A stretch of DNA of 64,000 bases from a virus. Its lineage: Duplodnaviria; Caudoviricetes. How positions within the stretch are numbered: position 1 is the first letter of the stretch; each line of letters opens with the position of its first letter. The stretch covers positions 64,001 to 128,000 of IMG/VR virus record IMGVR_UViG_3300005326_000040. One strand, written 5' to 3'. The position numbers and the translations under genes are program-made. Below are positions 4,689 through 16,876 of the stretch, one piece after another. The notes beneath the pieces are model-generated. The model saw nothing but the letters and a program-made list of their open reading frames with translations, made no database searches and was not told where the DNA came from.

Positions 4689-5098
4689 TTCGCAGGCTCT
4701 CGCTCAGGTATCTTCTTCTTTTCCTTCTCCTTAGGCTCCGTCCGTAACGTCCCATATGCTACAAATCCACCACCACATCTATGCCCATTATACTCCACCA
4801 ATGATTCATATCGCGGCACTAATATCAGCCCAAGTGTCCCTATCTTCCTCTTCTTCAATTGCTCCTCTATCTTCCCACGTATATACCCAGATATCGTCTC
4901 CTCTCCCCTTTTCTCATGATCCTTACACTCTACCTCTATCACAAAACTATGCACCGCACCTAATCCATCCCCTCCCGTTACATAACTCTTGTTCCCCAAT
5001 AACGGCCCTACCTTATACCCAACCCCCATCACCGCTAACTTTACCGCATCACTTATCCCAGCCGTCAATGTCACGATATACAACTGCCATTTACACAT
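4685..5098 (-). CDS. Hypothetical protein, first gene of the leftward unit
   Basis: AGGAGG SD and promoter directly upstream. Confidence 0.75.
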   Translation of the reverse strand: MCKWQLYIVTLTAGISDAVKLAVMGVGYKVGPLLGNKSYVTGGDGLGAVHSFVIEVECKDHEKRGEETISGYIRGKIEEQLKKRKIGTLGLILVPRYESLVEYNGHRCGGGFVAYGTLRTEPKEKEKKKIPEREPAN

Positions 5099-5116
5099 CG
5101 CTTCCTCCTACTCCCC

Positions 5117-5145
5117 ACCCTACACTACCAAATCCCCTATGTCAA
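5117..5145 (-). promoter_or_regulatory. Sigma70-type promoter for the leftward operon
   Basis: Minus strand TTGACA-17 nt-TAGGGT, with TG upstream of the -10. Confidence 0.6.
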
Positions 5146-5188
5146 TCTACGGCCAATTTCCCTTTTTTAAACTCCGGAGCAAAGCCAG

Positions 5189-5362
5189 CAAAATAAATCT
5201 TCCCAAAAAAACACTTAATAACTTAACTTAAACTTAAACCTTAACCCCAAATTTTATTTATACCATTTCCTATATACACCCAAACCCCAATAAAATTTAA
5301 ATCCACCCCCTTCCCCTTCTCTTTATACACCCTATACCATATACACTATACACTCTCTCTTA
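5189..5362. other. 174-nt tract with no G on the plus strand
   Basis: Direct reading: last G 5188, next G 5363. Confidence 0.95.
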
Positions 5363-5414
5363 GAGAATACTCTCTTAGATAATATACACACACATACTAT
5401 CGCCGTACCGGCCC

Positions 5415-5640
5415 CTGGTTAATTACTTGGGTTTACCACTGGTGCCCTCTGGTCAATTACTGGAGTTTGAAGATATTTATACCTGGAGTCGTCTGGTTAA
5501 TCACTGGAGTTTACTGCTAGTGCCTTCTGGTCAATTACTGGAGTTTGAAGATATTTATACCTGGAGTTTGGAGTTATTTATACCTGGAGTCGTCTGGTTA
5601 ATTACTGGAGTTTGCTGGTCTGTAATTTCTGGATATTATG
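5415..5640. repeat. Array of CTGG(A/T) units, mostly 10-14 bp apart, including an exact 42-nt direct repeat
   Basis: TCTGGTCAATTACTGGAGTTTGAAGATATTTATACCTGGAGT at 5448-5489 and 5526-5567; recurring CTGGTTAATTA / CTGGAGTTT units. Confidence 0.9.
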
Positions 5641-5813
5641 GATTACAGTGACACTGTTACTTTTCGTAAAAACTTATGCTACAACGTTAAAAATTACCCC
5701 AAATATACATCAATAATAACAATGACTTACGAAGGTGTTAGTTTTTAGATGTTTTGATTTGGTTTAAAGTGGTGGAGAGTGGGGATAAATGGGTTGTGAT
5801 ATCCTTTTGACGT

Positions 5814-5853
5814 GGGCCGGGCGCCGGGGCCGCCAGGGGGCCTAGGGGGTGGG
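5814..5853 (+). other. G-quadruplex-compatible G-run cluster
   Basis: GGGccGGGcgccGGGGccgccaGGGGGcctaGGGGGtGGG: six G3+ tracts, loops 1-6 nt. Confidence 0.55.
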
Positions 5854-5917
5854 CCTAGTGTCACGTCACGCGCTGTGATGCCATCTAGTGTGATGCAACG
5901 TCGTATAGTGTAACGTA

Positions 5918-6017
5918 GCGCAGTGACCATATATTGCACTATATCGTCACTCGGTCTGCGGTGTCGTGTAGCGTAGCGTAGGCCAGCGCAGTGACCATAT
6001 ATTGCACTATATGGTCA
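5918..6017. repeat. Two copies of a 27-nt palindrome-forming element
   Basis: GCGCAGTGACCATATATTGCACTATAT at 5918-5944 and 5986-6012; second copy folds TGACCATATA-ttgcac-TATATGGTCA. Confidence 0.85.
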
Positions 6018-6040
6018 AACCGCCTAACCCTGCCGTTACC

Positions 6041-6068
6041 TTTTGCGCGACGCTTCCCATGGTATCAT
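6041..6068 (+). promoter_or_regulatory. Possible extended -10 promoter for the rightward unit
   Basis: TG-G-TATCAT at 6060-6068; -35 weak. Confidence 0.4.
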
Positions 6069-6074
6069 TAAAGT

Positions 6075-6345
6075 ATAAGGTAATGGTTCGGGGGATAATC
6101 CCCTTCCGAAACCTTATGGTTCCCCGATGTTTCCCCTAACGTTATCCAGGGGTTACTAGTGGGTTCTCCGGGCGTTCTAGAGCGCTGGCAATAAACCAGT
6201 AAGGAACCGATCTGCCCCTAGTTAGGGGTTATTAGGGTTCCGAGAACAACCTAACGGCGCAAAGCCTGGGGAATCTAACGGTAACCTTTGGGCAATCAAA
6301 GGGAAACCAAAAGCCTGACCCAGCAGGATAACTGGGATTCCACGG
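6075..6345 (+). ncRNA. Structured leader / ncRNA candidate, homologous to 10070-10340
   Basis: Four co-linear shared motifs and several hairpins (see findings). Confidence 0.55.
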
Positions 6346-6353
6346 AGTTTACA

Positions 6354-7055
6354 ATGTCGTTCGCCAAGTCGTTCGCCGCTCGCGTTCTCTCCGCTGCTTC
6401 CGCTCAGCAGACCGCTCCGGCTCCGCAGGTTGCTCCGGTTGCCCAGGCCGCTCCGGCAATTCCGGGAACCGCTGCTCCGGTCATCCCTGGAATGGCGCCT
6501 TCGGTTCCGGTGGCGCCCCAGGCCACCGTCACGCTGGAAGCCATCAGGGCGGTCGTTGCGTCGGCTTACCCGACGCTCAACGCCGGACAGCACGACGCCA
6601 TCACCACCAACATCGCTCGGCTGACCGGGTTGCCGGTCACCGGGGCTCCGCCGAAGAACCTCGGCGGCTACGCCGCCGCAGCGGCGTTCGTCCTCAAGTC
6701 CATCCCTGGCGGGCTGGAGTTGCTCCAGGCCCAGGAGAAGAAGGGGTTGGGAAAGCGCGTGACCGACTTCCACACGGGCGTCACCGTCTGGAAGCAGGCT
6801 GATGTGCTTCGCCACGATGCTGAGACTGGGCTGGTCGTGCAGGGAAAGGAAGGGAACGCCTATCGGTCGGTGACCTTCACCGATGGCAGGGACAAGTCTG
6901 GGCAAACGCTGCGCAAGGCTCTCGTGAGTGCCCTGGCTCCCAAGGGAGCCGTCGAGACGTTGTTGGCGGCTCTGTGCCTCGCCCGGTCGTTTGGCATCAC
7001 CGATGAGATGATCCAGGAACTCGTCACCCGCAGCGCCGCCATCATGTCCAAGTAG
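6354..7055 (+). CDS. Ala/Pro-rich N-terminus protein, paralog of 46750-47583
   Basis: ATG 6354 after GGAG; EAIRAVVASAYPTL vs EAIATVVKATYPTL; strongly GC-biased codons. Confidence 0.85.
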   Translation: MSFAKSFAARVLSAASAQQTAPAPQVAPVAQAAPAIPGTAAPVIPGMAPSVPVAPQATVTLEAIRAVVASAYPTLNAGQHDAITTNIARLTGLPVTGAPPKNLGGYAAAAAFVLKSIPGGLELLQAQEKKGLGKRVTDFHTGVTVWKQADVLRHDAETGLVVQGKEGNAYRSVTFTDGRDKSGQTLRKALVSALAPKGAVETLLAALCLARSFGITDEMIQELVTRSAAIMSK

Positions 7056-7074
7056 TTCCCTTCTACGTACCCAC

Positions 7075-7136
7075 CTATTCGCCCCTGGTACTGACCCTCA
7101 AAGGGTTGGTGCCAGGGGCACCCTTTTACCCGTTAA
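7075..7136 (+). repeat. Intergenic hairpin R0 (divergent family member)
   Basis: GCCCCTGGTACTGACCC / GGGTTGGTGCCAGGGGC stem, then GTTAA. Confidence 0.6.
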
Positions 7137-7255
7137 AGCCCCTGTAGTTCAAGGGGTTTTAACCACTACCCCTGCGGGGGATTGGAGGGACGACTCAAGG
7201 TGAGTCATGCTCCCTCATTGGGATTCAATAGGGTGTAAACCCGCAGGAGATTACC

Positions 7256-7903
7256 ATGAATAGTTCGATTACCCGCAAGGCTTTCATCGCGATGCTCAAT
7301 ACGTTCGTTCGTCAGATGGAAGGCGTCATTGACGCCTGGAACGCCATTGAACGGATGAACCATATCTGCGCCGACGTTGAGGCGCAGATCTTCAGCAACA
7401 ATAGTGACCGCTACCACGACGGTAGCGTGACCACAACTGATTACAACATCCTTCTGCGAGGGCAGAAGGTGGGGTACGTTCGGGTGCGGGAAACTCACGA
7501 ATATCGGGAGGAAAGGGAGGTCTTTGTCTCCTTCACCGAGCTTTCCCCTCGCGAATGGCGGGAGCGGAAGGCTTCACAGCGGGCTGCGGCCCGCCGTCAT
7601 CAGGAGGCGTACGACGCCTCCCGTGAAGTCGTCGCTGCCGCCCTGGCGGCGGGGCAGTCCGTCCGTGTCCAAGATGGACAGAAAGGGGGGGTTTTCGTGA
7701 TTGGCGACCACAGGGTCGCCGCTGTGCGGCTTCTCACCTCGGCGTATTTCGGTTTCTCTGAGGAAGAGGCGAATCGTCGCCTCGGGGAGGCTTGGTACAA
7801 GGGTAGTGACAGTTGGGGGGGATTCACATTCACCCTCAACCCCGAGTTGGCACATCGCCAGTTCGGTCGTCCTACCAGCATCGAATGGGAGATGACGGCC
7901 TGA
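7256..7903 (+). CDS. Hypothetical protein (215 aa)
   Basis: GCAGGAG-attacc-ATG start. Confidence 0.85.
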   Translation: MNSSITRKAFIAMLNTFVRQMEGVIDAWNAIERMNHICADVEAQIFSNNSDRYHDGSVTTTDYNILLRGQKVGYVRVRETHEYREEREVFVSFTELSPREWRERKASQRAAARRHQEAYDASREVVAAALAAGQSVRVQDGQKGGVFVIGDHRVAAVRLLTSAYFGFSEEEANRRLGEAWYKGSDSWGGFTFTLNPELAHRQFGRPTSIEWEMTA

Positions 7904-7919
7904 GGGCCTCTTTCCCAGT

Positions 7920-7980
7920 CGCCGATGTTTGCCCCTTTCTCAGCCTTCGGCTGGGGGAGGGGCGTTCTTTCGGCGGTTAA
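7920..7980 (+). repeat. Intergenic hairpin R1
   Basis: CGCCGA-tgttt-GCCCCT...cagccTTCggctg...AGGGGC-gttctt-TCGGCG-GTTAA. Confidence 0.9.
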
Positions 7981-8105
7981 AAGCAACCGCCTCTGAGGGG
8001 CGGTATACAAGTACCCTGACGTGAACGAAGGCTTTCCCTACCTTTGGTGAATACCCTATGGGGTAAAGGGGAGACGGTAACATTATCCCACCGACAAGCG
8101 GATAT

Positions 8106-8173
8106 GTAGCACAATGTGGAACCTAATGAGTTATTGGCATTAGGGATGGGTTCGATTCCCATATGTGCTGCCG
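8106..8173 (+). ncRNA. D-armless tRNA-like RNA
   Basis: GTAGCACA/TGTGCTGC acceptor, CCTAATG/CATTAGG arm with 9-nt loop, ATGGG-TTCGATT-CCCAT T-arm; no CCA. Confidence 0.5.
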
Positions 8174-8256
8174 AGTGAAGATAATTCTTTCATTCGATTG
8201 TGGAGCATTCACAAGTAACAGGGTGTGAGTGGATTGAATCTCCAATCCAACTCTAA

Positions 8257-8363
8257 CTGGGTTTAGCTCAAGGGTAGAGCAACTTATGTTTCAAGGTCCT
8301 TCCTAACCAGCGGGACACCGAAACATAGGGATATATCGAGTTCAAGTCTCGATAGCCCAGCCA
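8257..8363 (+). ncRNA. tRNA-like RNA with a greatly enlarged anticodon arm, ends CCA
   Basis: CTGGGTT/AGCCCAG-CCA acceptor, GCTC-AAGGGTA-GAGC D-arm, ATCGAG-TTCAAGT-CTCGAT T-arm; 10-bp stem CTTATGTTTC/GAAACATAGG enclosing 27 nt. Confidence 0.75.
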
Positions 8364-8479
8364 AGTTAGTTGTCCTTTTCCTCTTCGGGGGATTAGCCCA
8401 TAGGGACGTGGGCACACCAGCCGTTATGTGGACGGTTGGAATGATTGTTGGGGTAATCCCCGTTGAAGGAGAATGAATC

Positions 8480-8755
8480 ATGGCACGTCGTAATGCTGCT
8501 CGTCGGGCTCGCAATTCAAAGAGGTCTGCCCTCGTGACTGCCGCTATTCAGATGGCTTGCAATGCGGGCTCCGGGCTTCAACTCTTCGTCGGAGCCTCCG
8601 TCGAGGAGTGTGAGCATGATTACGCGAAGAGCCTCGGTGCGGAAGCTGCAAGGCTCCGCTCGGGGCTCTTGGGATACGGGCTCAATATGGCGGCATTCCG
8701 CCATGAACCGCCCGTCGTTCAAGACTACGTGAGGAACTACATCCTCCTCGCATAG
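8480..8755 (+). CDS. Hypothetical protein
   Basis: AAGGAG SD; followed by hairpin R2. Confidence 0.8.
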   Translation: MARRNAARRARNSKRSALVTAAIQMACNAGSGLQLFVGASVEECEHDYAKSLGAEAARLRSGLLGYGLNMAAFRHEPPVVQDYVRNYILLA

Positions 8756-8760
8756 TTTTG

Positions 8761-8823
8761 CCGCCGACGTTTGCCCCTGTATCGGCCTTCGGGCCGGTAT
8801 GGGGGCGTTCTTTCGGCGGTTAA
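8761..8823 (+). repeat. Intergenic hairpin R2
   Basis: CCGCCGA...GCCCC...ggccTTCGggcc...GGGGC-gttctt-TCGGCGG-TTAA. Confidence 0.9.
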
Positions 8824-8867
8824 CAAGCTCCAGTGGGGTAACCAGTCCCCCATGAAAGGATATTACC

Positions 8868-9086
8868 ATGTACAAGTCCAATTCATTCGGCTCTCTCGGC
8901 GCGTCCCTTGGCGTGGCGAAGGTGCGGGAGCTTTCCCGCGCACTTCATGTCGCCGACTCCCGCCGTGAGGCGGCGAATGTGCAGAAGCTCATCGAGGCGA
9001 AAGCCTCTGAGATGCGTCGTTCGCTGAAGAATCCCGAGAGCTATGCTCTCGTGATCAATGCCCTCAAGAAGGAGGGCAAGCTGTAG
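8868..9086 (+). CDS. Small basic hypothetical protein
   Basis: AAAGGA-tattacc-ATG. Confidence 0.8.
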   Translation: MYKSNSFGSLGASLGVAKVRELSRALHVADSRREAANVQKLIEAKASEMRRSLKNPESYALVINALKKEGKL

Positions 9087-9095
9087 AGCGGGATT

Positions 9096-9158
9096 CCGCC
9101 GATGTTTGCCCCTGCTTTGGCCTTCGGGCCATTGTGGGGGCGTTCTTTCGGCGGTTAA
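9096..9158 (+). repeat. Intergenic hairpin R3
   Basis: Same consensus. Confidence 0.9.
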
Positions 9159-9170
9159 AGGAGGCGCAAT

Positions 9171-9458
9171 ATGAGTGCGCTCGAACGCAAGAAGGCCGCG
9201 AAGCTGGAAGCGCGGCGAAAGAAGTGTATTCTCTACGAGACAGCCAAGAAGGTTGTCTATAGCGCTGGCACTAAACAGGTGTCAGCAATGGTAAGCCGTC
9301 CGATGGCTTGCCCTCACTCGGACTTCACATACGACTTGTGGGAAGTCGTTGTTTTCAACAGCGACAATTCCACCTGTCGTGCCAGTTGCTATCTTCCAAA
9401 GGAGGAGGCTCTTGCTCTTGCTCGTAATTGGGCAATTGAGTTTGGAGCCATTCTTTGA
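9171..9458 (+). CDS. Hypothetical protein
   Basis: AAGGAGG SD directly after R3. Confidence 0.8.
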   Translation: MSALERKKAAKLEARRKKCILYETAKKVVYSAGTKQVSAMVSRPMACPHSDFTYDLWEVVVFNSDNSTCRASCYLPKEEALALARNWAIEFGAIL

Positions 9459-9461
9459 TAC

Positions 9462-9525
9462 CCGCCGATGTTCGCCCCTTTCTCAGCCATTCTGGCTGGG
9501 GGAGGGGCCTTCTATCGGCGGTTAA
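9462..9525 (+). repeat. Intergenic hairpin R4
   Basis: Same consensus with compensatory changes. Confidence 0.9.
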
Positions 9526-9528
9526 GAA

Positions 9529-9666
9529 TGCCAGATATCGTCCCCACTTCCTTTTCCCGCAAGGATTAGGGGGTCAAGTTGAAGAAGGACAAACCGGGAT
9601 GAACAATCCTGGAGGGACGGAGAGCTTTCGAGTTCTCAGGTGGTTCAATTCCATCATCTGGCACCA
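9529..9666 (+). ncRNA. 138-nt tRNA-like RNA: 8-bp acceptor, T-arm and CCA with a large inserted domain
   Basis: TGCCAGAT/ATCTGGCA-CCA; GGTGG-TTCAATT-CCATC; GAGAGC/GTTCTC hairpin; CGTCCC/GGGACG enclosing about 70 nt with sub-hairpins. Confidence 0.7.
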
Positions 9667-9762
9667 AAGCAAGTGTGTATCTTTAGGAGTTTGGGATTGT
9701 TTTTGCTCCGGAGTTCGGGAGCAAAGCATAATCATTCTCCTAAAGAACACAAAGGAGGAGAG

Positions 9763-9999
9763 ATGCTGACGAAAACGAATGCAAGAAGGTTGGTGGAGAT
9801 TGTTGCGCAGATAAAAGACTTGTCTGCCAAGAACGGCATGATCGATCAACGCCACGAAGATGTGGCGAAGATTCTGGGGACGTATAAGGAGGATGAATAT
9901 CCTTCTGAAGAAGACCCCGAGTGGCGCAAGAACAACGACGAGATTGGCAATCTCTACAACGAGCTTCTGTCCATCATCAACACAAGTCTCCCCCTGTAG
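9763..9999 (+). CDS. Hypothetical protein
   Basis: AAGGAGG SD, ATG 9763. Confidence 0.75.
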   Translation: MLTKTNARRLVEIVAQIKDLSAKNGMIDQRHEDVAKILGTYKEDEYPSEEDPEWRKNNDEIGNLYNELLSIINTSLPL

Positions 10000-10005
10000 A
10001 GACTT

Positions 10006-10067
10006 CCGCCGATTACCCGCCCCTTTTCAGCCTTCGGGCTGAGGAGGGGCGCCCTTTCGGCGGTTAA
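10006..10067 (+). repeat. Intergenic hairpin R5
   Basis: Same consensus. Confidence 0.9.
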
Positions 10068-10069
10068 AA

Positions 10070-10340
10070 GCTACACCCTATCCCAAGTATGTTCTCGTTC
10101 TCTCCATTATGGTATGGTTTTCAGTAGGGGGTAAAACATAAACCCCTTCTGGAAACTCTACCTCAACAATTCCCGATGTTTCTTTGTGTAGGGTTGTTGC
10201 CTACACGAGAGATAAAAGGATAGTTGATAGTATGACCCCCACCAAAGGGTCATTTATTAATGGGTAGAGGGTGAGAACAAACCTGGAGTGGAATTATCGA
10301 ATCGCCTGATAGGCGGCCTGGGGGCGGAACAACAACTCGG
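10070..10340 (+). ncRNA. Structured intergenic RNA, homologous to 6075-6345
   Basis: Shared co-linear motifs; GTGTAGG/CCTACAC and TGACCC/GGGTCA hairpins. Confidence 0.55.
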
Positions 10341-10343
10341 AGA

Positions 10344-10886
10344 ATGATCATGAAGACGACTTCCAAGATGAACGCGCTTCTGAATGCGGCCTGTGACCAT
10401 GCGAAGGCGCGTGGTCGTTTCCCCATGTACTTGGACCCGGTTAGGTTCGAGTTTGACGGGGACAGTGACTGTTACTTCGCCGCAAGAGCGAGGGACTTCA
10501 CGTTCTCCAAAGGGGCCGCAGCGATCATTGGTGCCGACATGATCGTCACCATGTTCGCGGGGGAGGAGCAGTGGGGAATGTTCTTCTCTACTCGTGAGTT
10601 GCTTGACCCCGAAACGCTCAAGTGGCTCAAGGATTCCGACCACTTGTTGGAAGACGAGTGGAAAGCAGCGGAGTCCTTGGCGAAGAAGGCCGAGCAACTC
10701 GCCTCTCAGGCGCGAGTTTCGGCCTTGAAGGCTCGTGAAGCGAGCCTCAGTGCCAACGACTTCCAGGTGGTCATGGTGGAGATTGAGCGAAAGCCCATCT
10801 TCGCCGCGCTGCCTGAGACAGTGGAAGTTCATCCCGTCTTCAGTCAGATCAACCGAGAGGTTGATTTCGATTGCAACTGGGATTGA
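10344..10886 (+). CDS. Hypothetical protein
   Basis: GGAG SD, GC-biased codons. Confidence 0.85.
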   Translation: MIMKTTSKMNALLNAACDHAKARGRFPMYLDPVRFEFDGDSDCYFAARARDFTFSKGAAAIIGADMIVTMFAGEEQWGMFFSTRELLDPETLKWLKDSDHLLEDEWKAAESLAKKAEQLASQARVSALKAREASLSANDFQVVMVEIERKPIFAALPETVEVHPVFSQINREVDFDCNWD

Positions 10887-10896
10887 ACCTGTTTCT

Positions 10897-10961
10897 CCGC
10901 CGATTGTTTGCCCCTGCTTTCGCCTTTCGAGGCGATTGAGGGGCATTCTTTCGGCGGTTAA
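10897..10961 (+). repeat. Intergenic hairpin R6
   Basis: Same consensus. Confidence 0.9.
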
Positions 10962-10983
10962 CAAGCAACCACTGGAGGCTGCT

Positions 10984-11232
10984 ATGAAGAAGCTGTGGTT
11001 TTGGGTGCATAGTGCGCCCACGGGGTTCGTCAAGGATGCTGATCGTCATGTTGTTGTGATGGCGATTGCTACCGAGGACGAGATTTATGGCCCTGGTATC
11101 GGTCTCGACAACTGGCACGAGACTGGTATCGAGGGCACTCTTGATGGTTGCCTCGCGACCCTCAAGAAGAATCATCCATGCGTCAACATGGAGACAATCC
11201 TCGGCGGCTGTTTGGGTTACGCCGTCGAATAA
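10984..11232 (+). CDS. Hypothetical protein
   Basis: GGAGG SD, ATG 10984. Confidence 0.75.
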   Translation: MKKLWFWVHSAPTGFVKDADRHVVVMAIATEDEIYGPGIGLDNWHETGIEGTLDGCLATLKKNHPCVNMETILGGCLGYAVE

Positions 11233-11234
11233 TA

Positions 11235-11545
11235 GTGGCTGATAAGTTGCTATCAAGAAAGGGCAGGAACGTATAGGAGTAACAATCCTAGTTCGAGTCT
11301 CCCCATAGGAAAGATAGGGCAAAGCCCACGTTGGACAATCTTTCCGCAGGTTTAGGCGAGCCAACCTATGGATGACTATAAACGGTTATAAGGCTCAGGG
11401 TCCAATGTTACTAGGTTAGGAAGGAGACCCAATGTAACGATAGCGGGTCTGGAGACAACTGAATAGCCCACCCTTCGGCAAGGTGGGCAATCTTAAGGGT
11501 ATGACTATTATGGTTGTATCCTTAAGATTGCCCAATTAGCCCCAA
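11235..11545 (+). ncRNA. About 310-nt structured intergenic RNA candidate with a pseudoknot
   Basis: CCATAGG/CCTATGG and GTTGG/CCAAC helices; crossing GTTAC/GTAAC and AGACCC/GGGTCT; 14-bp perfect inverted repeat 11485-11498/11520-11533. Confidence 0.55.
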
Positions 11546-11568
11546 CATATACCTGAGAGGAAAGAGTC

Positions 11569-11925
11569 ATGATCAAGGTGTGTTTCAACGAAGTGCCTGC
11601 CAATGTGGCGCAGTTCGTGGCGAAGAACATCCAGTCGGCGCAAATCGTGCGAGCGGCACGACCGGCGCCGATTGCGGCAGGAATGAAGCATTCGCCCAAT
11701 GTCATTGGAGGACGCCGTTACGGCAAGTACTCCAGGGGCGATAAGAACCGTAACCTCCGTAAGTCGGTGACGACCTATGGAGGACACACCTTCAAAGAGT
11801 TGATGGTGTTGATGGGCAACTCCGTGCCGATCAGCCAACTTCTCGCCATGAAGGAGACGAGGGAGTATTACGTCGGTGTTCGTCACGAATCGTGGAAGAA
11901 GTTCCGCGACCATCAGTGGAGGTAG
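11569..11925 (+). CDS. Basic hypothetical protein
   Basis: GAGG SD. Confidence 0.8.
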   Translation: MIKVCFNEVPANVAQFVAKNIQSAQIVRAARPAPIAAGMKHSPNVIGGRRYGKYSRGDKNRNLRKSVTTYGGHTFKELMVLMGNSVPISQLLAMKETREYYVGVRHESWKKFRDHQWR

Positions 11926-11929
11926 TTCG

Positions 11930-12106
11930 ATGGAAAGGTATCAGTGGGAAGCCTTGGCGGAGACGTTGTTGATGCTCTCTCGTGCTCAGACCATGAGCGG
12001 TTTGAATTACGAACGGGTTCGACAGTTCGTCCGTGGAGAGAGGCCGCTGTCGCGGCGAATTCGCCGGTCGATCAACATCCTCTCCAGAACCGTATTCGAT
12101 AAGTAG
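11930..12106 (+). CDS. Small Arg-rich protein
   Basis: GGAGG SD, ATG 11930. Confidence 0.7.
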   Translation: MERYQWEALAETLLMLSRAQTMSGLNYERVRQFVRGERPLSRRIRRSINILSRTVFDK

Positions 12107-12167
12107 TTCTGTTCGCCCCTGCTTTGGCCCTTCGGGGCCATTGTGGGGGCGATTCATTGGCAGTTAA
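12107..12167 (+). repeat. Intergenic hairpin R7
   Basis: TTCGCCCCT...ggcccTTCGgggcc...GGGGGCGA...GTTAA; outer stem decayed. Confidence 0.8.
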
Positions 12168-12178
12168 GGAGAGGTCCA

Positions 12179-12346
12179 ATGGAGAAGCTTCTTCAAGTGA
12201 TGAGGTCGAGGAAGTGCTCCTATACGGAGTACATTGAATTGAGGCTCGCCGTATTGGCCGACATCGGCAAGGGCGGCGACGAACTGGTAGCAAAAATCTT
12301 TCGGGGGTTGGGGATTCCGATTCCTGTGGACCCTCGTTACAACTAG
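12179..12346 (+). CDS. Small hypothetical protein
   Basis: AAGGAG SD after R7. Confidence 0.7.
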   Translation: MEKLLQVMRSRKCSYTEYIELRLAVLADIGKGGDELVAKIFRGLGIPIPVDPRYN

Positions 12347-12378
12347 GGTTCCTTCTCGCCGAAAGAAAGGAACACGTC

Positions 12379-12678
12379 ATGCTCTTTGAAGTGCGACCGC
12401 CGAATTCAATGAAGAACGTCATGGTGACGTTTGAATCGAGTACTCGGCGGGAAACAGCTGCCGCAAATGCTGCTGTTGAATCAGTTCTCAAAGATGAGGA
12501 CTTGCAGCCTTTTCATCAGATGGGCTGTGACCCTTTCTACGGGAACGACGCTCCCGGCATTCATGGTTGGGAAATCTGGGTTGACGGGGAGAACATTGCG
12601 CGGGTGGCGGCGCTTCTTCCAAAGATCCAGACCATCTACGAGAAGGAGTATATCCTTCGGGACTGGATGGAGGATTGA
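12379..12678 (+). CDS. Hypothetical protein
   Basis: AAGGA SD. Confidence 0.8.
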   Translation: MLFEVRPPNSMKNVMVTFESSTRRETAAANAAVESVLKDEDLQPFHQMGCDPFYGNDAPGIHGWEIWVDGENIARVAALLPKIQTIYEKEYILRDWMED

Positions 12679-12710
12679 ATTGGCAGGTTCGATTCCTATC
12701 CGTTCGGCCA
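12663..12710 (+). ncRNA. Possible tRNA minihelix or 3' tRNA remnant
   Basis: GCAGG-TTCGATT-CCTAT (one mismatch) then CCGTTCGG-CCA; weak GU-rich partner CTGGATGG overlaps the upstream gene end. Confidence 0.3.
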
Positions 12711-12726
12711 AGGAAGGAGATGAATC

Positions 12727-13038
12727 ATGAAGGTTCGTATGATGATTCTGGTTGATGGACAGTATCGTTGGGTCGATAGCAAATTCAAAAGCAGCTTGGA
12801 AGCTGCTCAGGAGGTGAGTATTCCCTATATCGCTGGTGCATCTCGTGGTGAGGAGGGGTGCATCGAAGTCACTGGCAACAAGGTGACTTTCGTCGGCTAT
12901 CCCGTCAACGTTCTTATCAGTGAGGATGAGAACCCGATCACCATGGTCATGTCTGTGAGGGAGCAGAACATGGTCAAGGAGTCGTATCCTTGCACGCCCG
13001 AAGAAGTCAACGAGATGAGGGCCGCCAACAAGGAATAA
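12727..13038 (+). CDS. Hypothetical protein, paralog of 22215-22526
   Basis: LVDG..RWVDS.F...GEEGCIEV.G..V.F..(Y/F)P. Confidence 0.85.
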   Translation: MKVRMMILVDGQYRWVDSKFKSSLEAAQEVSIPYIAGASRGEEGCIEVTGNKVTFVGYPVNVLISEDENPITMVMSVREQNMVKESYPCTPEEVNEMRAANKE

Positions 13039-13042
13039 CCGT

Positions 13043-13204
13043 ATGGAGCAATACGTTCACGACTTCGGCATCATCTGGCAAGTGATGTGTAAGACCTACA
13101 TTGCCCACATTCTTTTTGTGTGGGTGATGGTGGTGTTCACAGTTGAGAAGTGGCAGGAGTATCAGGAGGCCAGGGTGATGGTTCTCCGAAAGCTCCATAA
13201 GTAA
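13043..13204 (+). CDS. Small membrane protein (53 aa, not in track)
   Basis: MEQYVHDFGIIWQVMCKTYIAHILFVWVMVVFTVEKW...; AAGGA SD. Confidence 0.65.
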   Translation: MEQYVHDFGIIWQVMCKTYIAHILFVWVMVVFTVEKWQEYQEARVMVLRKLHK

Positions 13205-13217
13205 GGGAGAAGAGAGA

Positions 13218-13520
13218 ATGAAGAAGGTTGTGTTCGCATTCATCCTCGCCGCTATCGTTAGTGGTTGTGCCAAACCGGAGCCGAAGGTTCCTGTTGTTTC
13301 CCAGCAGCCCCAAGTGGCGCGGGTCATCTATACCGAGAAGGATTCTCCTCTCGACTATACAATCCGCGCCGAACAGGCTGTGATCGAAGGGGGTAGGACG
13401 GCGAAGCAGGCTGCCAGTCAGGCATATGATTGGGCAGCAAAGGAAGCGGAGGAGTTGGCCGACAAGGCGCGACGCGCCAAGAAGGCGGCCAAGGAAAAGA
13501 TTCACGAGATGACGGAGTGA
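13218..13520 (+). CDS. Predicted lipoprotein
   Basis: MKKVVFAFILAAIVSGC lipobox. Confidence 0.8.
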   Translation: MKKVVFAFILAAIVSGCAKPEPKVPVVSQQPQVARVIYTEKDSPLDYTIRAEQAVIEGGRTAKQAASQAYDWAAKEAEELADKARRAKKAAKEKIHEMTE

Positions 13521-13534
13521 CGTAGTGACGTAGT

Positions 13535-13597
13535 GGATGGTGTTCGCCCGTTATTCGGCTATAGAGCCGGGTGACGGGCGATGCTGTTTTCTTTTAA
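13535..13597 (+). repeat. Intergenic hairpin R8 (subfamily B), possibly terminator-like
   Basis: TCGCCCGTTA-TTCGGCT-atag-AGCCGGG-TGACGGGCGA-tgctgttttcttTTAA. Confidence 0.85.
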
Positions 13598-13624
13598 CGA
13601 GAGCCTTTCCCAAGGAGAAGTAAG

Positions 13625-13801
13625 ATGAGCAAGAACGAACTGATCGCGTTGGGGCTGGAAGCGCATGAAGTCGATTACATCGCCGAAGCGGTCGCCAAGA
13701 ATGGCGAAGTACTCGGCGACATCGTGCATGTGGACTTCTGCGTCAGCCCCAGGAGCGTTGGCGTGGAAACGGTGAATGAGGCGTACGACCTGGGACTGTG
13801 A
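13625..13801 (+). CDS. Small hypothetical protein (58 aa, not in track)
   Basis: AAGGAG SD; MSKNELIALGLEAHEVDYIAEAV... Confidence 0.7.
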   Translation: MSKNELIALGLEAHEVDYIAEAVAKNGEVLGDIVHVDFCVSPRSVGVETVNEAYDLGL

Positions 13802-13809
13802 GGTTCGTC

Positions 13810-14784
13810 ATGGGGTTAAATGAAGTCATCAATGGGCTGAAGCAGGGCAAGTCCTTCGAAAGGGCAGGGACGAGCACTGGTGGTGGGAAATATGTGGAAA
13901 AACTGATTGCTGTGAGTGCAATCTACTTCAAGCATCAGATCGTTGGCGCCATGAGTGGTCATGGTTGGGGAGGGTCGAGCCAGTTGGAGATCAATATCCT
14001 CAACAACGGTCGCTGGGACGAAGATGGATGGAAGGAGATTGCACCAGCCAGAGGTGAACAGTCATAAGTGGAGCAAACGATGACAACGATTATCGTTAAC
14101 ATATCGGATGACCTTTCCCTTGCAGATCGTGCCTACACGGTGGACGATTTGCAATTCTTGCTGAGTGATGCCTTGCGGTCTCACGGGATTGGCTGTCACC
14201 TTACGGTGCTCCCAACCGAGACAGACGAGCAACGGATCATTCAGATCATCCAAGAAAGCAAAAGTGTTTTGCACGCCATCAAAAGCGTACGAAGCACTTT
14301 TGGGTTTGATCTGCTCACCTCCAAGAGAATCGTGGAAGACCTTATCGCCAAAGGTACAACTGTGGGCGGGAAGTTGTAGAGGGAGGACACCATGCCAGCA
14401 GTGAGTCGTAAAGAAATCGATCATGAGCGTGAAGTTGACGCTCAACTCAAAACGGACCTTTGTAACCTTGCATGGTACGGGTCCGACAATCCTGAGGTTG
14501 TCAAACGAGCGGAGGCCAAGGAACGTGAGTGGAGCGAGAAGCACTATCGCTCTTTCATGGACGACCAGTTGGAGAGTCTTCGTTGTACTCTGCACAAAGA
14601 GATGATGGAAGACTTGTTGGATGACGATTTGGAAGCCTGTCAAGACAGGAGGGCAACTTCCAGGGACATCAGCGATGACCCTTACGACGCTCTGGACTTC
14701 CACGAGCCTTCGCCGTATGTCGAACAGGAGCCGGACTACGAGTCGGCGGCCGAAGAGTTCGCAGATTACGACGAGTACGATTGA
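13810..14784 (+). other. Three hypothetical CDSs
   Basis: 13810-14067, 14068-14379, 14392-14784 (acidic C-terminus). Confidence 0.75.
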
Positions 14785-14795
14785 AGGGAGGAGAT

Positions 14796-15233
14796 ATGAT
14801 TCACATCTATACAAGCACTGTGGTTCCTCTCGCCACGGTGGAGAATCACGTCGGCTATATGGCTGACCTTAATCTGCTTGAAGACTACAGGTTGGTTCAT
14901 CTCGATCACACTGCTCCGCACAACTTTCAGGCGGAAGAAGCGGAGAAGGTGATTGAGAAGCACAAGGCCAAGCCGCGCTTCATCTACGCGGTTGCTTGTG
15001 TGATGGAACCGGCGATTCTCCGGATTCTTCGGAGGGTCAGGGAGGGCAAGCTTTCCCACGAAGATGTCAAGGTTTTCGTTCTCTCATACGACGCCAACGA
15101 AAAGGAGGAAGTTTGCGAGTGTCGAGTGGATGGCGATGGGGACTTCATTGACTCCTGGCCTGATGGGTTTTTCGAGGCATGTTCCAAAGAGTTGTTTGCG
15201 GAAGGGGATACTGATGGCACCACGAACGCCTGA
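14796..15233 (+). CDS. Stand-alone DUF3696-like protein (C-terminal module of ABC/AAA ATPases)
   Basis: AILRILRRVREGKLSHEDVKVF...CRVDGDGDFIDSWPDGFFE matches the recalled DUF3696 pattern; no Walker A. Confidence 0.6.
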   Translation: MIHIYTSTVVPLATVENHVGYMADLNLLEDYRLVHLDHTAPHNFQAEEAEKVIEKHKAKPRFIYAVACVMEPAILRILRRVREGKLSHEDVKVFVLSYDANEKEEVCECRVDGDGDFIDSWPDGFFEACSKELFAEGDTDGTTNA

Positions 15234-15855
15234 GAGCAATCGTAGGCCGCCGACGATTAGTGACAAGCAGTTGGTCAATCGTCGCATCCGAGTGGTCTAT
15301 CGGCGCCGCAGCATTGACTCCTATCACAACATCATCTATCACGATGATATCGAATGTGAGGGGGTTCTTCGGCTCAATCCTTCGGGATATGGGTTGACGG
15401 TGTTGACGGATGACGGTCGGTCGGTTGGGTACTTCCGCGCCGACTGTCCACTCCAACGCGACGAACCGATGCCCAGTGATTTCTCCCACATGAAGGGATA
15501 CGATGGGCACGCTGATTTGAGCTATGAGTTGACGCCGGTATCCGACGAAGTGATTCCGGTGGCGACACCGGAGAACGTCGGGGAACCGGCGAAGTCTCCG
15601 GTGATGTATTACCGAAGTGAGGCTCAAGGCGTTCTCAGGAACGACCTGAACAACACAGTCGTTGGTACGATGGAATCGTATCGAGTATGGGTCGTCACCC
15701 AGAATCAGTGGCTGGAGGTCACTGAAACAATTATGAAGATGTTGTATGGGTCGGAGAGTAATCTTCGGCGCTGGCATCCTCAGGGTGAAAAGGTTTCAAC
15801 GTTCTACGATCACTTCGAAAGGAACTTCCCTGGGGTATCCCTGGGACTTGCGTGA
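15214..15855 (+). CDS. Hypothetical protein
   Basis: ATG 15214 after AAGGGG. Confidence 0.8.
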   Translation: MAPRTPESNRRPPTISDKQLVNRRIRVVYRRRSIDSYHNIIYHDDIECEGVLRLNPSGYGLTVLTDDGRSVGYFRADCPLQRDEPMPSDFSHMKGYDGHADLSYELTPVSDEVIPVATPENVGEPAKSPVMYYRSEAQGVLRNDLNNTVVGTMESYRVWVVTQNQWLEVTETIMKMLYGSESNLRRWHPQGEKVSTFYDHFERNFPGVSLGLA

Positions 15856-15914
15856 GGGGTTGGTCGCCCGGTATCGTTCTTGGAACGGTATCGGGCGATG
15901 CTGTTTTTATTTAA
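15856..15914 (+). repeat. Intergenic hairpin R9 (subfamily B)
   Basis: TCGCCCGGTATCGTTC-ttg-GAACGGTATCGGGCGA-tgctgtttttatTTAA. Confidence 0.85.
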
Positions 15915-15933
15915 CGATACCAGGAGGATTACC

Positions 15934-16200
15934 ATGTGCATGTCGATTGACGACAAGGTTCCCTTCAAGTGGACGCCGCACGAGCAGGCTTCCCACGTTA
16001 TCATTGGATACTGTGCCAAGTGTGGAAGTGGCGGTATCATGATGACGGCGAAGAACGAACTGGAAGCCTACAGGATGAGGAAGTGGTATCGAGCCCACGG
16101 TTATCCGAAGGCTCGAATCGAACTGGACAATGAGGAGACCTCCAAGCAGGTTTCGGATGAGTTGACGGACCTCATCTGTTGGGAAGACTCTCACGTCTGA
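15934..16200 (+). CDS. Hypothetical protein with CxxC
   Basis: CAGGAGG-attacc-ATG. Confidence 0.75.
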   Translation: MCMSIDDKVPFKWTPHEQASHVIIGYCAKCGSGGIMMTAKNELEAYRMRKWYRAHGYPKARIELDNEETSKQVSDELTDLICWEDSHV

Positions 16201-16245
16201 GTCGGGATAACGCCGCAAAGAAATCCTTTTCAAAGGGAGAGAGTT

Positions 16246-16779
16246 ATGAACCAGAGCAACATGATTGCCATGGCTACGAGCCCTTCATCGTTCGACATGT
16301 TCAAGTTGACGGAGATTCTCGTCAACTGCGGAGGGACGATCTTCGGTGGGTTCGTGAGGGACATGGTGGCTGGGCAGTTGGACTTCGTGAGCGACATCGA
16401 CGTGAGTATGCGTCAGGAGTTCAAGCTCCAGTATCTCATGGCAAGGCTTATCAAAGAATACCAGCAAGTGCTGGTGTCGGCCTTGCCTGTGAAGAATTAC
16501 GGGAGAGGGAACCCCGACGGGTTCCGGTTGACTGTGGACGGTATTGATGTTGATATCGTTTGCGAGGCCGATCGAGGAATCCTTGACCTCGACGTGAATG
16601 GGCTCCTGTGGGACAATAATGGGTTGAGGTTGGATATCAGCCGATATCGTGTCAACGGGGACACCTTCGTTCAGTTGGTTCAACGGATTCAGCAGAAGCA
16701 GTTCCGTCGAATCGACGTTCCGCTGTGGCGGGAGAGGAAGGTGGCGAAGCTGAAGTCGATGGGGTGGACGGAAGTGTGA
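16246..16779 (+). CDS. Nucleotidyltransferase, tRNA-nucleotidyltransferase/poly(A) polymerase head domain only
   Basis: GGTIFGGFVRDM...SDIDV...DVDIV...DLDVNGL; 177 aa, lacks body/tail. Confidence 0.75.
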   Translation: MNQSNMIAMATSPSSFDMFKLTEILVNCGGTIFGGFVRDMVAGQLDFVSDIDVSMRQEFKLQYLMARLIKEYQQVLVSALPVKNYGRGNPDGFRLTVDGIDVDIVCEADRGILDLDVNGLLWDNNGLRLDISRYRVNGDTFVQLVQRIQQKQFRRIDVPLWRERKVAKLKSMGWTEV

Positions 16780-16785
16780 GGGTAG

Positions 16786-16848
16786 GGATGGTGTTCGCCC
16801 GTTATTCGGCTATAGAGCCGAGTGACGGGCGATGCTGTTTTCTTTTAA
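16786..16848 (+). repeat. Intergenic hairpin R10, near-identical to R8
   Basis: One substitution relative to 13535-13597. Confidence 0.9.
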
Positions 16849-16876
16849 TGAGGGCGTCATTGAAAGGACAAGAAGA

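Follow-up and report, generated by a model that had tools for sequence, protein, structure and literature searches.

Phage HK022 makes two put RNAs of ~70 nt, each with two stems, that are encoded downstream of its early promoters and act on the host polymerase (PMC9378689). In T4-type phages, PeSL elements occur as near-identical copies, in which a stem-loop is located just upstream of sigma-70 -35/-10 sequences, a Shine-Dalgarno (SD) sequence and a start codon (PMC2839356, PMC4122927). Here, we describe two short elements, named A and B, in the early region of a very large uncultured phage (Caudoviricetes; IMG/VR record IMGVR_UViG_3300005326_000040), whose record is a single sequence of 338,055 bp (G+C content, 41.5%) that is estimated to be 97% complete. 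The window that we analyzed corresponds to bases 64001-128000 of this record (64,000 nt) and the coordinates of genes and RNA features given below are those of the window. A and B appear to be two paralogous copies, 60-110 nt in length, each opening the leader of an early gene, the two genes being unrelated ORFans, and the explanation that we favor, still tentatively, is that they constitute a sense-strand RNA recognition module.

Leader A (6075-6353) precedes the first rightward gene, with an SD sequence (GGAG) at 6344-6347 and an ATG at 6354 that opens a reading frame of 233 aa, while leader B (~10073-10349) lies between the intergenic hairpin R5 and the seventh gene, with an SD sequence at 10339 and an ATG at 10350 (178 aa). 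Both leaders are ~280 nt long, untranslated and located upstream of a gene on its sense strand, which supports the suggestion of cis-regulatory leaders made in a previous sequence-only reading to this extent. The module is also non-coding, as that reading had assumed: its conserved blocks contain indels that shift the frame, and only short, unconserved open reading frames (ORFs) are present. A coding function or a leader peptide was rejected, as two ORFs that open at a shared ATGGTA, one of 10 and one of 26 codons, differ after two residues, and a conserved peptide is ruled out because 1-nt indels sit inside both long blocks. A mutual comparison showed that the proteins encoded by genes 6354 and 10350 are unrelated to each other.

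The four co-linear motifs that had been proposed to be shared by A and B were all recovered in place. Two of them are long and specific: block 2, CCCCTTC.G(G)AAAC, and block 3 (hereafter m2), T(Y)CCC(C)GATGTTTC (6120-6133 and 10170-10182), each have exactly two copies in the whole genome, in A and B alone and on the + strand, and no third copy of either emerged from fuzzy pattern scans that tolerated as many as 2 errors. They come in the same order in A and B, 20 and 27 nt apart. The shared blocks measure 5, 13-14 and 13-14 nt. Each of the two long ones carries one 1-nt indel, to which the first adds a C/T difference, and the blocks are otherwise identical between the copies. By contrast, the hairpin loops (5 vs 9-11 nt) and the linkers that follow the first hairpin, H1, have nothing in common and cannot be aligned; the block-to-block spacing differs by 5-6 nt between the copies and the loop length by 4-6 nt. 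When aligned semi-globally in windows, the 5' modules (6075-6136 and 10108-10185) were mutual best matches within 15 kb, with a score of 45.5 compared to a null of 11.9 +/- 5.0. When the comparison was run over the 112,660 windows of the genome, both strands included, A was the best non-self match of B, and B ranked first or second for A. Since the alignment score alone stands at the edge of the null, the claim that A and B are related is carried by reciprocity, block uniqueness, strand and position.

Relatedness over 270 nt, which had been claimed, was not supported; only the 5' 60-110 nt are demonstrably related. The 3' parts of the leaders (6137-6353 vs 10186-10349) gave a score of 37, which was equaled in 127/1371 and 180/1366 local control windows (9-13%). 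As to the two remaining motifs, the GAGAACAA..CCT block falls in the 4% tail of the background (114/2863) and GCCTGGGG is an ordinary 8-mer with 6 copies in the genome. Because the 3' 160-220 nt are at background level, what is real here is a 5' module common to A and B and not a pair of homologous 270-nt RNAs. A MAFFT alignment of A and B misplaced H1. We also noted that a 16-nt string at 6087-6102 is alike in 14/16 positions to one at 8384-8399 (TTCGGGGGATAATCCC and TTCGGGGGATTAGCCC, respectively); the 8384 copy folds differently, with a UUCG tetraloop, and the likeness is probably due to chance.

In both copies, H1 is predicted to be a three-tier hairpin with a G5/C4 top. In A, H1 (6075-6117, + strand) is composed of an outer AUAAGGU/ACCUUAU, a middle UGG/CCG and a top GGGGGA-UAA-UCCCCU tier and carries block 2 as CCCCUUCCGAAAC; its minimum free energy (MFE) is -17.9 kcal/mol (z -2.1), a value that 9/200 shuffles equaled. 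In B, H1 (10111-10162, + strand) pairs GGUA with UACC, GGUUUUCAG with CUGGAAACU and AGGGGGU with ACCCCUU around a 9-nt loop, and carries block 2 as CCCCUUCUGGAAAC. It reaches -26.7 kcal/mol (z -5.3; 0/200 shuffles as good), compared to -19.7 kcal/mol for the - strand. The flanks of the hairpin are specific to each copy and self-complementary in each: AUAAGGU/ACCUUAU in A, and GGUA/UACC with GGUUUUCAG/CUGGAAACU in B. At a CYG triplet, one compensatory pair was found (C-G in A, U-A in B), and two sequences can offer at most one.

Downstream of H1, m2 of A (6120-6133, + strand) reads TTCCCCGATGTTTC and includes the 9-mer CCGATGTTT, which is also present in the left arm of the intergenic hairpins R1 and R3, while the counterpart of m2 in B (10170-10182, + strand) reads TTCCCGATGTTTC. 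A second hairpin, H2, is predicted to start within m2 in each copy. H2 of A (6123-6163, + strand) is a weak hairpin (CCCG/UGGG, GU/AC and CCCCU-10 nt-AGGGG). H2 of B (10171-10220, + strand) is well supported, with -20.4 kcal/mol and z -3.95, and is made of UCC/GGA, a 3x3 internal loop, UGUUUCUU/GAGAGAUA and GUGUAGG-7 nt-CCUACAC. In B, both hairpins and a third one, H3 (10232-10253), are enclosed in a predicted four-way junction domain (10087-10282, + strand), whose closing helix of ~20 bp pairs 10087-10110 with 10254-10282, the latter including GAGAACAAACCT. The MFE and centroid structures of this domain (10086-10284) coincide, at -83.7 kcal/mol (z -7.7). A has no counterpart of this closing helix; the rest of leader A (6134-6353, + strand), in which the motifs GAGAACAACCT (6242-6252) and GCCTGGGG (6264-6271) are found, instead folds into a long imperfect rod (6145-6291) with z -3.75 and without significant likeness to its counterpart in B. 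In both leaders, the string GAGAACAA(A)CC pairs with a GUUCUC located upstream of it; in B this partner precedes H1, in A it follows H2 and, because of this difference in position, the pairing was not counted as conserved structure.

Comparing the two strands was more informative than z-scores. For the whole B module, the + strand folds at -47.1 kcal/mol and the - strand at -33.1 kcal/mol, with 6 G.U pairs, and for the whole leader A the values are -109.5 and -93.5 kcal/mol, respectively. Two further structural ideas were rejected. For a switch of the riboswitch or attenuator type, with m2 (UUCCCCGA, GUUUC) invading H1 (UCGGGGGA, GAAAC), the complementarity is present in both copies, and forcing the alternative pairing costs +10.2 kcal/mol in A and +24.9 kcal/mol in B. 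Pairing in trans between m2 and GAAACAUAGGGA in a tRNA-like RNA at 8320 was likewise set aside, ~0.3 such matches being expected by chance. The site itself, GAAACATAGGGAT (8320-8332, + strand), lies inside the tRNA-like RNA at 8258-8363 and is a one-mismatch complement of the conserved UCCCGAUGUUUC, with the same ~0.3 expected by chance in the block.

The module also shares a feature with the R hairpins that separate the early genes. Seven R copies align on a common hairpin, in which five pairs show compensatory changes, and a covariance model built from these 7 copies (outer stem CCGCCGA/UCGGCGG, internal loop, GCCCC/GGGGC and apical stem) detected eleven + strand hairpins in the window, namely the 7 R copies and those at 7070, 13535, 15858 and 16780. 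Besides A and B, the 9-mer CCGATGTTT is found exactly, on the + strand, in R1, in R3 and at two unrelated sites of the 338 kb, and the left arms of R2, R4 and R6 are one change away from it. Its placement is alike in A, B and R, in the lower 5' strand of a hairpin and beside an internal loop. From a rough count of R 9-mers, the probability that such sharing arises by chance is ~0.003-0.01. The link between A/B and the R hairpins is real but narrow. Among the weaker members of the R family, those at 13535-13602, 15858-15919 and 16780-16853 are devoid of the outer CCGCCGA/UCGGCGG stem and end in U-rich tracts (UGUUUUCUUUU, UGUUUUUAUUU), and therefore have the appearance of genuine intrinsic terminators, which R1-R7 do not.

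Considering these findings, we propose a mechanism in which the module acts as RNA. From 5' to 3', it would consist of H1 (G5/C4 top, with CCCCUUC-Y-G(G)AAAC as its 3' strand), a variable linker of 7-13 nt and the string UYCCC(C)GAUGUUUC, which would form the lower 5' strand of H2. One trans factor, which may be a protein of the phage or of its host or else the RNA polymerase of the host, would bind both invariant strings on the adjacent hairpins and its binding would mark where two early units of transcription or processing begin, with read-through, processing or stabilization of the early transcripts as the possible outcome. The same factor might touch the R hairpins as well, through the 9-mer (CCGAUGUUU as RNA). 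Because perfect 11-13-mers adjoin loops and linkers that cannot be aligned, selection on the blocks appears more plausible than the neutral decay of a duplication. RNA tolerates shifts of 4-6 nt in spacing and loop length, which a fixed bipartite DNA site does not, and an RNA signal is therefore favored over a fixed DNA site, given the variable spacing, the copy-specific complementary flanks and the strand bias of B. Should the module prove to be a genuine RNA signal, it would offer a handle on how early transcription is organized in such a large phage, and its two invariant strings would be concrete mutable targets for studies of antitermination, processing and protein binding.

Several observations weigh against this reading. 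At the level of sequence, blastn-short and nhmmer --max detected no similarity between A and B beyond the 11-mer CCCGATGTTTC of m2 (E ~25), and two unrelated genomic windows (230817 and 44781) reached 42 in the genome-wide comparison, near the A-B score. At the level of structure, the conserved 3' string of H1 pairs in different registers in A and B; a common register was rejected, since A folded in the register of B falls short of its MFE by 6.6 kcal/mol. H2 of A (-13.7 kcal/mol, z -0.4) is no better than shuffles and gives way to alternative folds in longer contexts, and the A module taken by itself shows no strand asymmetry in folding energy. The leaders had been described as structured, and their folds do have low z-scores (-3.6 and -4.5, with values down to -5.1). 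Eight controls taken from coding segments of the block (6400-16600) fold at z -1.4 to -6.9 and, because coding DNA there scores as low, folding z-scores cannot single out RNAs in this block. Coding DNA of this early block of high G+C content folds much better than its dinucleotide shuffles. The R covariance model misses A and B (6118-6165 and 10163-10222), even at E<=10 with filters off, so that H2 of A or B was rejected as a member of the R family; of the relationship previously suggested between the module and the R hairpins, the shared 9-mer stands and family membership does not. No candidate binding protein was identified, and there are only two copies, with no homologue found by pattern searches of IMG/VR, JGI metagenomes and GTDB genomes. 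Finally, the 5' edges of both copies have the string ATGGTAT in common, whose TGGTAT resembles an extended -10 element.

This last point belongs to an alternative that we consider unlikely, according to which A and B are elements of the DNA, each a promoter with or without an operator. Host sigma-70 polymerase would use two extended -10 promoters, namely TGGTATCAT (6060-6068, + strand), 7 nt upstream of H1-A and a candidate promoter by its match to the consensus only, and TGGTATGGT (10110-10118, + strand), which shares sequence with the 5' strand of H1-B, and the blocks, a short way downstream, would be repressor or activator sites for two early units. The blocks indeed keep their sequence and not just their pairing, and the phage apparently depends on the host polymerase. 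The pattern TGnTAnnnT is ~5-fold denser in the intergenic parts of the array, with 7 matches in 3981 nt compared to 3 in 8519 nt of coding sequence, a weak statistic for a pattern of only 5 fixed bases, and it also heads a third long non-coding stretch at 11240. However, the distance from the -10-like string to the G-run is 22 nt in one copy and 10 nt in the other, a difference of 12 nt, the spacing between the blocks is off by about half a helical turn and no -35 element was found. In B, moreover, the string forms part of H1 and of a very stable four-way junction, for which the upstream sequence would have to be transcribed. A start ~7 nt downstream of the -10-like string would place H1 at the 5' end of the RNA in A, whereas in B it would leave the lower H1 stems and the closing helix untranscribed; because it removes that helix, such a start in B conflicts with the strong junction, unless upstream read-through transcripts exist as well. 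Other extended -10-like strings were observed at 5266 and 5340 on the - strand (TGGTATAAA, TGGTATAGG), in a G-less tract and facing the leftward genes, and at 11240 on the + strand (TGATAAGTT), where the string directly follows a stop codon (11232) and heads a non-coding stretch of 336 nt.

Just as doubtful, or slightly more so, is the idea that A and B are relics of cassette duplication or shuffling, in which one leader, or a decayed R-type hairpin with its flank, was copied together with early cassettes and was then kept in part, without a function of its own. The setting would fit, since the array is made of small ORFan genes parted by repeated hairpins, as described for PeSL-mediated shuffling (PMC4122927); m2 shares its 9-mer with the left arm of R (17/19 positions in A), and the 3' parts of the two leaders are unrelated. 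However, the conservation of A and B is blocky and not that of an even decay, with perfect 11-13-mers by the side of unalignable loops and linkers, and neither copy is matched by the R model. Unlike in PeSLs, the stem-loop is not directly followed by a sigma-70 promoter and an SD sequence, as 157-211 nt separate m2 from the SD sequence. Membership in a PeSL cassette was rejected in the same way, no promoter-like site being found after H1.

A sub-case of the RNA recognition module itself is a processive antitermination signal, either put-like (the RNA binds the polymerase) or nut-like (the RNA recruits a protein), which we regard as distinctly improbable. By analogy with these systems, the host RNA polymerase would be loaded by each copy at the head of a unit, either directly or via a phage protein, for read-through of the hairpins that follow nearly every early gene, and, if this was true, the R hairpins would share CCGAUGUUU since they would be read by the same machinery. 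As for HK022 put, there are two copies per genome, each of ~70-110 nt with two adjacent predicted stem-loops and located at or near the 5' end of an early leader. The eleven + strand hairpins follow genes of the array, and terminator-like ones include R1, R2, R3 and R6, as flagged in a scan, as well as those with U-rich ends at 13535, 15858 and 16780. Only 25-45 nt separate an R hairpin from the next start codon and, because this leaves no room for a promoter, the polymerase must traverse the R hairpins. No phage polymerase was found in a Pfam search of the genome. On the other side, the two modules have no sequence similarity to putL and putR, which we located in AF069308 through their mutual similarity: A and B score 7-10, compared to shuffle means of 12-17. 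No boxA-like string was found, and both copies belong to one co-directional array and not to two operons. With its outer stem closed, moreover, an R hairpin holds its U-rich stretch inside and has UUAA as 3' flank, making it a poor terminator that resembles a processing or stability hairpin more. With regard to the put-like layout, two stem-loops are predicted in both A and B, H2-A being weak, and the one candidate sign of promoter proximity is the extended -10-like string.

That A and B are two leaders rich in G and C runs that resemble each other by chance appears very improbable. The silence of blastn and nhmmer, the unrelated windows that score 42 against one or the other copy and the background level of the 3' motifs would fit such a view. 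But two different strings of 13-14 nt are unique to this pair in 676 kb (both strands), in the same order, on the same strand and in the same context by a G5/C4 hairpin, the modules are reciprocal best matches and the unrelated high scorers each resemble one copy only and are devoid of the blocks. In CRISPR repeats, the 3' strand and tail form the part that is read by Cas6- or Cas5d-type enzymes. The least probable of all the explanations, a mimic of such a repeat (a solitary repeat, like an RNA anti-CRISPR), draws on the likeness, in shape only, of H1-A to a 28-nt repeat with a G(G)UU start, a central G/C hairpin and a 9-10-nt tail ending in GAAAC, and it is countered by the different lengths of H1 in the two copies (A, 28 nt; B, 41 nt), by the lack of any Rfam CRISPR-DR match, short-window scans at E<=10 included, and by the lack of array-like multiple matches in viral contigs during an IMG/VR search with the H1 pattern.

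Coming back to the RNA recognition module, its genomic context is that of an early region rich in RNA. The direction of transcription flips upstream of A, with genes oriented leftward until ~5100 and rightward from 6354, and the GC skew switches there too. The G+C content then rises to 52-60% in the block from 6 to 18 kb, where small + strand genes form an array with hairpins and long non-coding stretches between them; in addition to the eleven intergenic hairpins, this early region contains several tRNA-like RNAs and long leaders. The Pfam search detected one gene of the sigma-70 family in the genome, and neither a single-subunit or multisubunit RNA polymerase nor an RNase III. The host polymerase thus probably reads the early genes and, because no phage enzyme of either kind was found, host polymerase and host RNases are plausible partners of the module. 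At the strand switch, 60-170 nt upstream of module A, we also observed two 44-nt direct repeats (5906-6017), each with a near-perfect palindrome of 28 nt (GTGACCATATA-TTGCAC-TATATGGTCAC; 5924-5951 and 5990-6017), which resemble a paired operator or initiator-binding site.

Relatives of the module were searched for at several levels. The two downstream proteins belong to no Pfam or PHROG family and are ORFans, with only self-matches among 5.8 billion proteins and no usable look-alike in the ESM Atlas; a neighboring nucleotidyltransferase, which could have offered a route to homologues through synteny, is likewise without relatives. A strict two-block pattern had 0 matches in IMG/VR, 10 in JGI metagenomes and 14 in GTDB genomes, all of them without a G-run hairpin and attributable to chance. 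The H1 pattern had 33 single matches in IMG/VR, none of which was followed by m2, while the R pattern had 0 matches and its right-arm 15-mer gave chance matches only. At the gathering threshold, Rfam 15 found tRNAs alone in the window. Relaxed scans (E<=5 for 5000-12000; E<=10 for 6050-6180 and 10080-10290) returned only generic hairpins far below threshold, such as miRNA precursors or drum (20 of 43 bits), and among the Rfam ribozymes, T-box, CRISPR-DR and phage RNAs none reached even a weak score in A or B. A hammerhead-like reading of CCGAUG/GAAAC, inspected by eye, fails at invariant positions, and no ribozyme family is supported. The suggestion of the sequence-only reading that no described RNA family is involved is thus borne out by the Rfam scan. 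As for the new family of non-coding RNAs or cis-regulatory leaders that it had envisaged, a non-coding shared module that includes a hairpin does exist, and since IMG/VR, JGI metagenomes and GTDB genomes yielded no further homologue, the family remains unproven. With a two-copy motif in one genome and no relatives found, its general importance is unproven too.

The module belongs to no described family, and its likenesses to known systems are therefore best described feature by feature. The early RNase III sites of T7 (R0.3, R0.5) are hairpins with internal loops that are located between nearly all early genes, one of them in the leader of the first gene, which recalls the present array; A and B differ from such sites in that they fall outside the R covariance family, in that H1 has no counterpart there and in that no phage RNase III was found. 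PeSLs resemble the locus in that stem-loops (G-run, loop, C-run) recur between the small ORFan genes of an early array and may adjoin a promoter, and differ from it since A and B are just two diverged copies with no -35/-10 sequences following the stem-loop and with their long distance to the SD sequence. Lambda nut (boxA and the boxB hairpin) is, like the module, a bipartite RNA signal that combines a linear motif with a hairpin and occurs twice per genome near the starts of early units. Nut is read by a protein, whereas a reader of A and B is only proposed; the order is reversed here, the hairpin coming first and no boxA-like sequence being present, and no N-like protein is recognizable, as the neighboring proteins are without family. 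The put RNAs of HK022 are also alike: as with A and B, one genome has two copies of ~70 nt that show similarity to each other and have two adjacent stem-loops, predicted ones in the case of A and B, in the sense strand of early leaders, in a setting with host RNA polymerase and with hairpins to pass downstream. A conserved string of 14-20 nt nevertheless separates H1 from H2 here, compared to one nucleotide in put, and the similarity between A and B (z ~5) is much weaker than that between putL and putR (z ~12). Put acts via the zinc-binding domain of the polymerase beta' subunit and suppresses termination and pausing, whereas A and B are likened to it by layout alone. The comparison with put is an analogy of layout, not a claim of membership.

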